From Escherichia coli (GTDB taxonomy: Bacteria; Pseudomonadota; Gammaproteobacteria; Enterobacterales; Enterobacteriaceae), in assembly GCF_003334385.1 (NCBI RefSeq), contig NZ_QOWN01000019.1: 64,000 nucleotides of DNA. One strand, given 5' to 3'. A program made the translations under genes and the position numbers. Each line of letters begins with the position of its first letter. Within the stretch, counting starts at the first letter, position 1. Shown in pieces: positions 11,124 through 31,185 of the stretch. The notes beneath the pieces are model-generated. The model did no database searches and was not told where the DNA came from. It saw nothing but the letters and a program-made list of their open reading frames with translations.

Positions 11124-11152
11124 TAAAAAAATCCCCGCCAAATGGCAGGGAT
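11124..11152 (-). terminator. Rho-independent terminator of cspA
   Basis: On the minus strand ATCCCTGCC-ATTT-GGCGGGGAT followed by TTTTTTT. Confidence 0.85.
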
Positions 11153-11179
11153 CTTAGATTCTGTGCTTTTAAGCAGAGA

Positions 11180-11392
11180 TTACAGGCTGGTTACGTTACC
11201 AGCTGCCGGGCCTTTAGCGCCGCTTTCGATGGTGAAGGACACTTTCTGACCTTCGTCCAGAGATTTGTAACCATCGTTCTGGATAGCAGAGAAGTGTACG
11301 AACACATCTTTAGAGCCATCGTCAGGAGTGATGAAGCCGAAGCCTTTGTCAGCGTTGAACCATTTTACGATACCAGTCATTTTACCGGACAT
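11180..11392 (-). CDS. cspA: Major cold shock protein CspA (70 aa)
   Basis: [21 protein letters not shown]... with RNP1/RNP2 cold-shock domain motifs. Confidence 0.97.
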
Positions 11393-11610
11393 AGTGTATT
11401 ACCTTTAATAATTAAGTGTGCCTTTCGGCGATATGGCGTGCTTTACAGATTTTGAAGCGTTAAAGGAATGTGCACTACGAGGGGTATCAACGATAACTCT
11501 TGAAGGGACTTGCCTTACTACACTGCTTTAATGGTCTGTACGTCAAACCGTTGATGTGCATTAAGCCACGCATTGGCGGGTGATGCAACAATTATTTTTC
11601 ATATTTATGA
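11393..11610 (-). promoter_or_regulatory. cspA promoter, AT-rich UP region and ~159-nt 5' UTR with cold-box
   Basis: On the minus strand -35 TTGCAT (11583-11588), 17-bp spacer, -10 CTTAAT (11560-11565); cold-box TGACGTACAGA (~11535-11545). Confidence 0.75.
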
Positions 11611-18500: not shown

Positions 18501-19205
18501 GTGTTAATGATCATAAAAAAAAGCGGTGGTCGCTGGCAGCTAAGCCTGCTGGCGAGCGTGGTAATCAGTGCCTTTTTTCTCAACACAGCTTACGCCTGGC
18601 AACAAGAATATATCGTTGATACGCAACCCGGACTTTCCACAGAGCGTTACACCTGGGATAGTGATCATCAACCTGATTACAACGATATTTTGTCGCAACG
18701 TATTCAAAGTAGCCAAAGGGCGCTGGGACTGGAAGTCAATCTGGCGGAAGAAACCCCTGTGGATGTGACCAGCAGTATGAGTATGGGCTGGAATTTTCCT
18801 TTATATGAACAGGTTACAACCGGCCCGGTCGCGGCATTACATTACGATGGCACAACCACCTCGATGTATAACGAGTTTGGCGACAGTACTACCACGCTGA
18901 CCGATCCGTTATGGCATGCCAGCGTGAGTACCTTAGGCTGGCGTGTTGACTCCCGGCTTGGCGATCTCCGACCCTGGGCGCAAATCAGCTATAACCAGCA
19001 ATTTGGCGAGAATATCTGGAAGGCGCAATCAGGCCTGAGCCGGATGACGGCGACAAACCAGAACGGCAACTGGCTGGATGTCACCGTAGGCGCTGATATG
19101 TTGCTCAATCAAAATATTGCCGCCTATGCCGCGCTAACTCAGGCAGAAAATACCACTAATAATAGCGACTATCTGTATACGATGGGGGTTAGCGCCAGAT
19201 TTTAA
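18501..19205 (+). CDS. yhjY: Conserved secreted protein YhjY (predicted outer-membrane beta-barrel / autotransporter-like)
   Basis: Track ORF with GTG at 18501 (alternative ATG at 18507); N-terminal signal peptide, C-terminal aromatic residue (…GVSARF). Confidence 0.75.
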   Translation: MLMIIKKSGGRWQLSLLASVVISAFFLNTAYAWQQEYIVDTQPGLSTERYTWDSDHQPDYNDILSQRIQSSQRALGLEVNLAEETPVDVTSSMSMGWNFPLYEQVTTGPVAALHYDGTTTSMYNEFGDSTTTLTDPLWHASVSTLGWRVDSRLGDLRPWAQISYNQQFGENIWKAQSGLSRMTATNQNGNWLDVTVGADMLLNQNIAAYAALTQAENTTNNSDYLYTMGVSARF

Positions 19206-19319
19206 CGTAACAGTCACAATTGAAACCATTAAATAACAATAGTTGTGGCGATAGTGGGTGCTAACTTACCAAATAATAAATTTGGTGAATAATTGTCGCG
19301 TCATTCATTCCTGAACTAA

Positions 19320-19350
19320 GGCATTTCATTCCGTTCTGATGGCATTTCAT
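19320..19350 (+). promoter_or_regulatory. Two direct repeats GGCATTTCAT separated by 11 bp, the YpdB (LytTR response regulator) binding motif of the yhjX promoter
   Basis: GGCATTTCAT at 19320-19329 and 19341-19350, ~85-115 bp upstream of yhjX ATG. Confidence 0.8.
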
Positions 19351-19433
19351 GCCGTTTTTCCCCAGGCATAAAGTGCACTTCGTTATGGTTGTCGGCAGAG
19401 ATTTTTCCTTTTTATTACTGCAGGAATACTGCC

Positions 19434-20642
19434 ATGACACCTTCAAATTATCAGCGTACCCGCTGGCTGACACTCATCGGTACTATCATTACCCAGTTTG
19501 CGCTGGGGTCGGTTTATACCTGGAGCCTGTTTAATGGCGCGCTTTCCGCCAAGCTGGATGCGCCGGTAAGCCAGGTCGCTTTCTCTTTCGGCTTGTTAAG
19601 TCTGGGGCTGGCAATTTCGTCTTCTGTTGCGGGCAAATTACAGGAACGTTTTGGCGTTAAACGCGTCACCATGGCTTCCGGCATTTTGCTGGGATTAGGC
19701 TTCTTCCTGACAGCGCATTCTGACAACCTGATGATGCTGTGGTTAAGCGCCGGTGTGCTGGTGGGACTGGCAGATGGCGCGGGTTATCTGCTGACGCTCT
19801 CTAACTGTGTGAAGTGGTTCCCGGAGCGTAAAGGTCTGATCTCCGCGTTCGCTATCGGTTCTTATGGTCTGGGTAGCCTGGGTTTCAAATTTATCGACAC
19901 GCAGCTGCTGGAAACGGTCGGTCTGGAAAAAACCTTTGTGATTTGGGGAGCGATTGCGCTGTTGATGATTGTTTTCGGCGCAACGTTAATGAAAGACGCA
20001 CCAAAACAGGAAGTGAAAACCAGCAATGGTGTGGTGGAGAAAGATTACACGCTGGCAGAGTCGATGCGTAAACCGCAGTACTGGATGTTAGCGGTAATGT
20101 TCCTGACCGCCTGCATGAGCGGCCTGTACGTGATTGGGGTAGCGAAAGATATCGCCCAAAGTCTGGCACACCTTGATGTGGTTTCCGCAGCCAATGCAGT
20201 CACTGTTATTTCCATCGCCAACCTTTCAGGTCGTCTGGTGCTGGGTATTCTGTCTGACAAAATCGCCCGTATCCGTGTTATTACCATTGGTCAGGTGATA
20301 TCGCTGGTGGGTATGGCGGCCCTGCTGTTTGCACCATTGAATGCAGTGACGTTCTTTGCAGCGATTGCCTGCGTGGCATTTAACTTTGGCGGCACTATTA
20401 CCGTCTTTCCGTCACTGGTCAGTGAGTTCTTTGGCCTCAATAACCTGGCGAAAAACTACGGTGTGATTTATCTCGGTTTCGGTATCGGTAGCATTTGTGG
20501 TTCGATTATCGCCTCACTGTTTGGCGGCTTCTATGTGACCTTCTACGTGATTTTCGCCCTGCTGATTCTGTCATTGGCGCTTTCTACGACGATTCGTCAG
20601 CCAGAGCAGAAAATGTTGCGTGAGGCGCATGGCTCCCTTTAA
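19434..20642 (+). CDS. yhjX: MFS transporter, oxalate/formate antiporter-like, pyruvate-inducible (402 aa)
   Basis: Start MTPSNYQRTRWL at 19434; 12 predicted transmembrane helices. Confidence 0.9.
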   Translation: MTPSNYQRTRWLTLIGTIITQFALGSVYTWSLFNGALSAKLDAPVSQVAFSFGLLSLGLAISSSVAGKLQERFGVKRVTMASGILLGLGFFLTAHSDNLMMLWLSAGVLVGLADGAGYLLTLSNCVKWFPERKGLISAFAIGSYGLGSLGFKFIDTQLLETVGLEKTFVIWGAIALLMIVFGATLMKDAPKQEVKTSNGVVEKDYTLAESMRKPQYWMLAVMFLTACMSGLYVIGVAKDIAQSLAHLDVVSAANAVTVISIANLSGRLVLGILSDKIARIRVITIGQVISLVGMAALLFAPLNAVTFFAAIACVAFNFGGTITVFPSLVSEFFGLNNLAKNYGVIYLGFGIGSICGSIIASLFGGFYVTFYVIFALLILSLALSTTIRQPEQKMLREAHGSL

Positions 20643-22748: not shown

Positions 22749-22825
<77 letters not shown>

Positions 22826-22915: not shown

Positions 22916-23002
22916 GTAGGCCTGATAAGACGCGTCAGCGTCGCATCAGGCAAATGTGCCGGCCATTGTCGGATGCGGCGCGACCGCCTTATTCGACCTA
23001 CA
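22916..23002. repeat. REP (repetitive extragenic palindromic) elements
   Basis: GTAGGCCTGATAAGACGCGTCAGCGTCGCATCAGGC and a degenerate GCCGG..GGATGCGGCG..CCTAC unit. Confidence 0.75.
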
Positions 23003-25212: not shown

Positions 25213-25310
25213 GCCTGATGCGCTCCTCTTATCAGGCCTACGAAAATTCTGCAATGTATTGAATTTGCACGATTTTGTAGGCCGGATAAGGCGTTAACGC
25301 CGCATCCGGC
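25213..25310. repeat. BIME: two inverted REP elements between dppA and dppB
   Basis: GCCTGATGCGCTCCTCTTATCAGGCCTAC and GTAGGCCGGATAAGGCGTTAACGCCGCATCCGGC. Confidence 0.85.
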
Positions 25311-26511: not shown

Positions 26512-27414
26512 ATGTCACAGGTTACTGAAAATAAAGTGATTAGCGCACCGGTGCCGATGACCCCGTTACAGGAGTTCTGGCACTATTTTAAACGCAACAA
26601 AGGCGCGGTCGTCGGGCTGGTTTACGTCGTCATCGTGCTGTTCATCGCGATCTTTGCCAACTGGATTGCACCCTATAACCCGGCGGAACAGTTCCGCGAT
26701 GCACTGCTCGCCCCGCCAGCCTGGCAGGAAGGCGGCAGCATGGCGCACTTGCTGGGCACCGATGACGTAGGCCGTGATGTGCTGTCGCGCCTGATGTACG
26801 GTGCGCGCCTGTCGCTGCTGGTTGGCTGTCTGGTAGTTGTGTTATCGCTGATTATGGGCGTTATTCTCGGCCTGATCGCCGGTTACTTTGGCGGCCTGGT
26901 CGATAACATCATTATGCGCGTGGTCGATATCATGCTGGCGCTGCCAAGTCTGCTGCTGGCGCTGGTGCTGGTGGCAATTTTCGGCCCGTCGATTGGTAAC
27001 GCCGCGCTGGCACTGACCTTCGTTGCCTTGCCGCACTATGTGCGCTTAACCCGCGCCGCCGTGCTGGTGGAAGTTAACCGCGATTACGTCACCGCGTCTC
27101 GCGTGGCGGGTGCCGGGGCGATGCGTCAGATGTTTATTAACATCTTCCCGAACTGCCTTGCGCCGCTGATTGTTCAGGCGTCGCTCGGTTTCTCTAACGC
27201 CATTCTCGATATGGCTGCTCTTGGTTTCCTCGGCATGGGGGCACAGCCGCCAACGCCTGAGTGGGGCACCATGCTCTCCGACGTGTTGCAGTTCGCGCAA
27301 AGCGCCTGGTGGGTCGTGACCTTCCCGGGTCTGGCGATCCTGCTGACGGTGCTGGCATTTAACCTGATGGGTGACGGTCTGCGTGACGCGCTCGATCCCA
27401 AACTGAAGCAGTAA
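26512..27414 (+). CDS. dppC: Dipeptide ABC transporter permease (300 aa)
   Basis: Track ORF. Confidence 0.95.
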
Positions 27415-31070: not shown

Positions 31071-31136
31071 GAGAAAACCCCCGCACGTTGCAGGTATGCA
31101 CCTGACAACACCACGGGGGCTAATCTTGACTCTAGA
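31071..31136 (-). ncRNA. rdlD: Rdl antisense sRNA (antitoxin of LdrD), overlapping the ldrD leader
   Basis: Minus strand reads GTCTAGAGTCAAGATTAGCCCCCGTGGTGTTGTCAGGTGCATACCTGCAACGTGCGGGGGTTTTCTCTC, ending in a GC-stem plus U-run; boundaries approximate. Confidence 0.6.
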
Positions 31137-31185
31137 CCACTCAAGAATAGCCGCGAAACGTTGTCATTACAACACAGGCGGCTAT

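Follow-up and report, generated by a model that had tools for sequence, protein, structure and literature searches.

The direct repeat that lies upstream of yhjX is almost certainly the published operator of YpdB (PyrR), from which this regulator activates the gene. It consists of two copies of GGCATTTCAT on the + strand, located at positions 19320–19329 and 19341–19350 of the 64,000-nucleotide stretch of DNA analysed here (the window), with a spacer of 11 nt at 19330–19340. These coordinates, obtained by direct search and with a script, reproduce exactly those of a preliminary description, which had read the repeat and its spacer as a LytTR-type operator through which YpdB controls a pyruvate-inducible transporter. 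That interpretation holds, and it concerns a previously described element (Fried, Behr and Jung 2013, J Bacteriol 195:807; Behr, Heermann and Jung 2016, PMC4847170), as follows from its identity to a published binding oligonucleotide at 57 of 57 positions, from published SPR data and from the fit to the LytTR layout. No evidence contradicting the assignment of the two boxes, site A and site B, was found. The case is best regarded as a positive control, in which a reading from sequence only recovered an experimentally characterised operator at its exact coordinates. Biologically the two-box site by itself is nothing new, and the small gain is a conserved footprint wider than two 10-mers.

The window is Escherichia coli K-12-type DNA. 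The region 19150–19500 is 100% identical to strain BW25113 and is found in 5423 of 5426 complete E. coli genomes. In the RefSeq annotation of BW25113 the repeat is flanked by yhjY, which ends at 19205, and yhjX, whose coding sequence occupies 19434–20642 on the + strand with its ATG at 19434. The intergenic region between them is 228 bp in length (19206–19433), and sites A and B start 114 and 93 nt 5' of the yhjX ATG. The regulated gene had therefore been named correctly from the start, and it is pyruvate-induced according to the published papers. YhjX is an MFS transporter of the oxalate/formate-antiporter (OFA) family (TIGR00890, 478.5 bits; NF049980, 342.1 bits; both above their cut-offs). 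The RefSeq/NCBIfam label for the protein is 'L-lactate MFS transporter' (NF049980, 342 bits against a cut-off of 320). The ypdAB genes are not next to yhjX in the annotated 12-kb neighbourhood, and their location elsewhere in the E. coli K-12 genome is established.

Site A, the high-affinity YpdB site, is taken here as GGCATTTCATTCC (19320–19332, + strand) and site B, the lower-affinity cooperative site, as GGCATTTCATGCC (19341–19353, + strand); both assignments combine the published 10-mers with SPR and conservation. The repeat can be extended to 16 nt, GGCATTTCAT[T/G]CCGTT, with 15 of the 16 positions identical, and site B is in addition quasi-palindromic (GGCAT-TTC-ATGCC). A repeat of 10 nt (12–13 nt conserved) with an 11-nt spacer and a 21-nt period falls inside the norm for LytTR regulators, namely repeats of 9–11 nt and spacers of 11–13 nt (PMC4847170). 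No copies of GGCATTTCAT other than these two exist on either strand of the 64 kb, where shuffled windows contain a mean of 0.30 copies and reach two in 3 of 100 shuffles. With up to two mismatches allowed, the motif shows no enrichment in the window (85 found, 81.5 expected). Of 100 shuffled windows, 31 contain some exact 10-mer pair with a start-to-start distance of 19–24 nt (on average 0.43 pairs per 64 kb), a frequency that our own arithmetic scales to ~0.0015 for the 228-bp intergenic region. The repetition by itself is weak evidence; what gives it weight is its location in a promoter and its conservation between genera. Only one more exact direct repeat with a 21-nt spacing exists in the window, an unrelated pair at 26933–26964 (TGCTGGCGCTG). 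An off-register pair with a 25-nt spacing (19301/19326), returned by an automated repeat search that did not list A and B, was set aside in favour of the direct search and the script.

The published YpdB-binding fragment of the yhjX promoter, the core of the oligonucleotide used for SPR (Table 1 of PMC4847170), matches the window at 19297–19353 on the + strand in all 57 positions. This oligonucleotide was designed from the footprint that Fried et al. 2013 obtained with DNase I and is said to cover every protected nucleotide (PMC4847170). Transversion of site A abolishes binding of YpdB-D53E, the phosphomimetic form, in SPR, and after transversion of site B one binding event remains, with a KD of 23 nM (PMC4847170). 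The authors of that study inferred that monomers bind sequentially and cooperatively, first to A and then to B, and that B requires A to be occupied first (PMC4847170). The gene yhjX is reported to be the sole direct target of YpdB and to be induced several-hundred-fold by pyruvate (PMC4847170 and other papers); one study reports a 678-fold increase with extracellular pyruvate at 3 mM. For binding by YpdB and its requirement for pyruvate induction, the sources are this published SPR and Fried et al. 2013, as the latter is cited by others. Taken with the oligonucleotide match, the SPR data and the single-target status of yhjX bear out the proposed control of a pyruvate-inducible transporter by YpdB.

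Conservation was assessed in 80 yhjX loci from ~25 enterobacterial genera, drawn from contigs of one genome per species and aligned over positions −170 to +6. The sampled genera include Escherichia, Citrobacter, Enterobacter, Buttiauxella, Kluyvera, Lelliottia and Kosakonia, and Klebsiella oxytoca is also represented. Site A (19321–19332) retains 1.94 bits per column and site B (19342–19353) 1.80 bits, and a third box upstream of A, referred to here as box 0, retains 1.77 bits at 19300–19311, with a 95% majority. The spacers between the boxes (19312–19319 and 19333–19340) carry 0.46 and 0.67 bits per column and the DNA 5' of box 0 (19264–19296) 0.30 bits. Since the spacers are drawn from the same sequences, they provide an internal control for relatedness. 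All three direct boxes are kept in every one of the 80 loci, and of the 111 distances between consecutive + strand matches to a weight matrix derived from A and B (the A+B matrix), 99 measure 21 nt across the loci. Conservation of the operator together with yhjX in other Enterobacteriaceae agrees with Behr 2017. Within the species, the 62-bp operator is present at ≥95% identity in 5396 of 5426 E. coli genomes, and the adjoining upstream 62 bp in 3993.

The conserved unit differs somewhat from the published 10-mer. Over the 80 loci it is the 12-mer GCAnTTCATkCC, and the three bases 3' of the 10-mer are invariant. At position 19320, the first G of site A, 28 of the 80 loci have T; because this base varies, the exact 10-mer repeat is not universal, and GCATTTCATTCC is. 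The same position is polymorphic within E. coli, where strains E166 and Ecol_AZ146 carry TGCATTTCAT. In site B all 80 loci have G at position 11. On its promoter side, site B is flanked by a [G/T]TTTT tract (19354–19358, + strand) in which TTTT (19355–19358) is at least 95% conserved; this tract could contribute to DNA bending or to a contact with the flank. One E. coli strain, DX6 (NZ_CP126345, positions 3199–3215 of the extracted locus), carries an IS1 element between yhjY and yhjX, with the junction inside site B after GGCATTTC, equivalent to position 19348 of the window. In DX6 the insertion has presumably removed yhjX from control by YpdB.

The preliminary description had also noted a third, degenerate copy of the repeat further upstream. 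The copy is present (TCATTCATTC, 19301–19310) and stands in the 21-bp register of the other two, but the word degenerate does not hold, since at 1.77 bits per column it is conserved like A and B and matches them better than had been implied. Box 0 is taken as CGTCATTCATTCC (19299–19311, + strand), a conserved repeat in 21-bp register with A and B. Aligned without gaps, the 13-mers that begin at 19299, 19320 and 19341 have in common a G at position 2, which is invariant, TTCAT (positions 6–10) and CC (positions 12–13), and TTCATKCC recurs at 19304, 19325 and 19346, in exact 21-nt steps. In the window the arrangement TTCATKCC-N13-TTCATKCC, with up to two mismatches, occurs only here, twice in tandem (0.23 expected). 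The TTCAT of box 0 is invariant in 80 of 80 loci. A gapped reading is also available, in which GTCATT-CATTCC equals site A (GGCATTTCATTCC) minus one T. Judged by this conservation, box 0 is a strongly conserved phased box and no decayed remnant.

What box 0 is conserved for is a separate matter. The most likely reading of the conserved register is that it provides a weak third YpdB contact that would depend on cooperativity, or a DNA-shape element that would support site A. However, it is quite possible, if somewhat less probable, that the box is kept for a reason other than YpdB, as the site of a second protein or as a DNA-shape or alpha-CTD-contact element whose likeness to the repeat is coincidental. 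A fragment mutated in site A shows no binding of YpdB-D53E up to 50 nM, so box 0 binds neither independently nor in combination with B only, and the B-mutant fragment shows a single binding event and not two, so box 0 is not visibly paired with A in SPR (PMC4847170). Its score on the A+B matrix is only 2.0 bits, since box 0 has T/C at position 3 and C at position 4 where A and B have C and A; these deviating bases are themselves conserved (T/C in 61/18 loci at position 3, C in 77 of 80 at position 4). Against a function separate from YpdB stand the exact 21-bp register and the 8 or 9 informative positions common to box 0, A and B, as well as the location of box 0 inside the fragment that is said to cover all DNase I-protected nucleotides (PMC4847170). 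The operator oligonucleotide of the paralogous regulator BtsR, moreover, has a third upstream copy as well, at the same offset. The SPR result also carries less weight than it would elsewhere, since box 0 starts 8 nt from the biotin–streptavidin anchor of the oligonucleotide; the geometry disfavours binding there and makes SPR a poor test of cooperativity between box 0 and A.

For sites A and B themselves the alternatives fare much worse. Recognition of the boxes by another regulator of pyruvate control, such as the paralogous LytTR protein BtsR (YehT) or the global regulator CRP, is very unlikely. A search for the BtsR motif as CC[G/A/T]CT[C/T]A finds no copy on either strand between yhjY and yhjX (19206–19433), and TTCAT is absent from the yjiY oligonucleotide. 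In uropathogenic E. coli (UPEC) the non-cognate kinase BtsS can drive YpdB, but this cross-talk passes through YpdB as the DNA-binding partner, and deletion of ypdB with btsR intact abolishes yhjX induction according to the cited papers. Purified YpdB-D53E also binds this very DNA, with site A required. Chance duplication of a functionless 10-mer in AT-rich DNA between genes, for which the shuffled windows, the unrelated pair at 26933 and the lack of enrichment of mismatched copies might speak, has a negligible probability and is ruled out by conservation and by the published SPR data, as both boxes keep their place and their 21-nt spacing over ~25 genera while the spacers diverge, and published binding and mutagenesis cover exactly this sequence.

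The core promoter lies directly downstream of the operator. A TAnnnT element at 19384–19389 (TATGGT in the window, + strand) is likely to be the −10 hexamer, as T-A-n-n-n-T is found in essentially all 80 loci; the variants are TATCGT (27), TATGGT (19), TATTGT (10), TACTCT (7) and others. The transcription start would fall in a CAG at 19396–19398 (+ strand), which is at least 95% conserved and places A19397 8 nt past the −10. No mapped yhjX start was found in the accessible papers. With +1 at 19397, site B would occupy −56 to −44, site A −77 to −65 and box 0 −98 to −86, and an inverted box further downstream (box 4) −32 to −20. No recognisable −35 is present at this promoter when the conserved TAnnnT is taken as −10, and site B would then sit at approximately −56 to −44. 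Such a placement, together with the absent −35, would be as expected of an activator-dependent promoter. Three other promoter readings were considered and rejected. The octamer CATAAAGT (19367–19374), as a candidate −10, has 46 variants across the loci against the invariant TAnnnT. A consensus promoter scan gave a single match, TTACCA-16-AATAAT at 19266–19293, where 1.0 is expected by chance, and the DNA there is not conserved from one genus to another. A sigma-54 reading of TGGCA...TGCA at 19364–19377 fails on inspection, as the distance from GG to GC is 10 nt and 12 are required.

Box 4 is an inverted box resembling site B, located on the − strand at 19365–19377 (GGCATAAAGTGCA on the + strand, TGCACTTTATGCC on the − strand). 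It scores 13.1 bits against the A+B matrix (P = 4.3e-6 per position) and lies 11 nt 3' of B in the core promoter, between the inferred −35 and −10 positions; such a box recurs in many of the genera sampled. The box is only partly conserved, with 0.79 bits per column over 19359–19376, and the aligned position reaches at least 6 bits in 30 of 77 loci. Nine loci score between 19.6 and 23 bits there with GGCATGAAATGC, a near-perfect reverse complement of the site B core. Box 4 falls outside the published footprint-based binding fragment, and in the accessible papers neither box 0 nor box 4 is named as a site. Both could be YpdB contacts or DNA-shape elements, or could be bound by another factor. 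Elsewhere the window contains no second phased pair and no strong matrix match; the best are single matches at 3774 (12.0 bits) and 57456 (13.3 bits), which are at chance level.

The leader 3' of the promoter contains a conserved GCAG-GAAUA-CUGC sequence at 19420–19432, which could fold into a hairpin of 4 bp that covers the Shine-Dalgarno AGGA and, with GGA at its stem–loop junction, resembles a CsrA site. This hairpin is no more stable than those of shuffled sequences (z = −0.42), and its pairs are invariant, with no covariation. An Rfam search gave no match at the locus. Elsewhere in the window, matches above the gathering threshold occur at 9299–9438, 11125–11552, 22749–22822, 22919–22998, 25234–25276 and 31072–31137. 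The families concerned (sok antitoxin, cspA thermoregulator, tRNA, naRNA4, ES036 and rdlD) are ordinary K-12 features.

Combining these features with what others have reported, activation of yhjX most likely proceeds as follows. According to published reports, extracellular pyruvate activates the kinase YpdA, whose part is played in UPEC by the non-cognate BtsS. Phosphorylated YpdB then occupies the high-affinity site A as a monomer, as reported by others, and a second monomer binds cooperatively at site B, two helical turns downstream and on the same face of the DNA. Site B would end ~8 nt 5' of the would-be −35. As B adjoins the −35 position, and the promoter has a conserved −10 but lacks a recognisable −35, it is probably the protomer on B that recruits RNA polymerase. 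The operator may also comprise more than two boxes, with box 0 one further 21-bp step upstream. A more speculative extension, which we put forward tentatively and consider rather doubtful, is that the operator is not a two-site switch but a four-element array, formed by box 0, A and B with a 21-bp period and by the inverted box at 19365–19377. Box 0 would in that case serve as a cooperative contact that sets affinity or bending, and the inverted box as a low-affinity shut-off at high concentrations of phosphorylated YpdB. If true, such an array would offer a sequence-level basis for the pulsed 'AB-BA' expression, and a function for the extra boxes would call for a refinement of the kinetic 'AB-BA' model of LytTR activation.

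Operators of other LytTR regulators (AgrA P2/P3, VirR boxes, PlnC/PlnD, ComE) are likewise built from paired repeats of 9–11 nt with spacers of 11–13 nt, bind cooperative monomers and are located just upstream of an activator-dependent promoter, a position that the yhjX repeats may share if the −10 and start region are placed as above. The members of the family share no common consensus sequence. DNA bending induced by AgrA is reported in the cited literature. The closest parallel is the operator of BtsR (YehT) in the yjiY (btsT) promoter, which belongs to a paralogous LytS/LytTR pyruvate system; there too, direct repeats spaced by approximately two helical turns precede a single transporter gene. 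The YehT oligonucleotide from the yjiY promoter (Table 1 of PMC4847170) contains three phased copies of its motif, GCCGCTCA, ACCGCTTA and ACCACTCA, at positions 7, 27 and 48; the boxes in the published yhjX oligonucleotide are at 8, 28 and 49. The two systems differ in regulator and, according to the literature, in pyruvate affinity, and the BtsR motif CC[G/A]CT[C/T]A is unrelated to the TTCATKCC of yhjX. The three phased copies suggest that the upstream part of the proposed four-element array may be shared by the BtsR system. Compared with the published description of the yhjX promoter of E. coli and its sites A and B, the operator examined here has the same sequence, gene context, motif (GGCATTTCAT), 11-nt spacer and orientation, and what is added to that description is the longer, shifted unit GCAnTTCATkCC, the phased box 0 and the inverted box 4.
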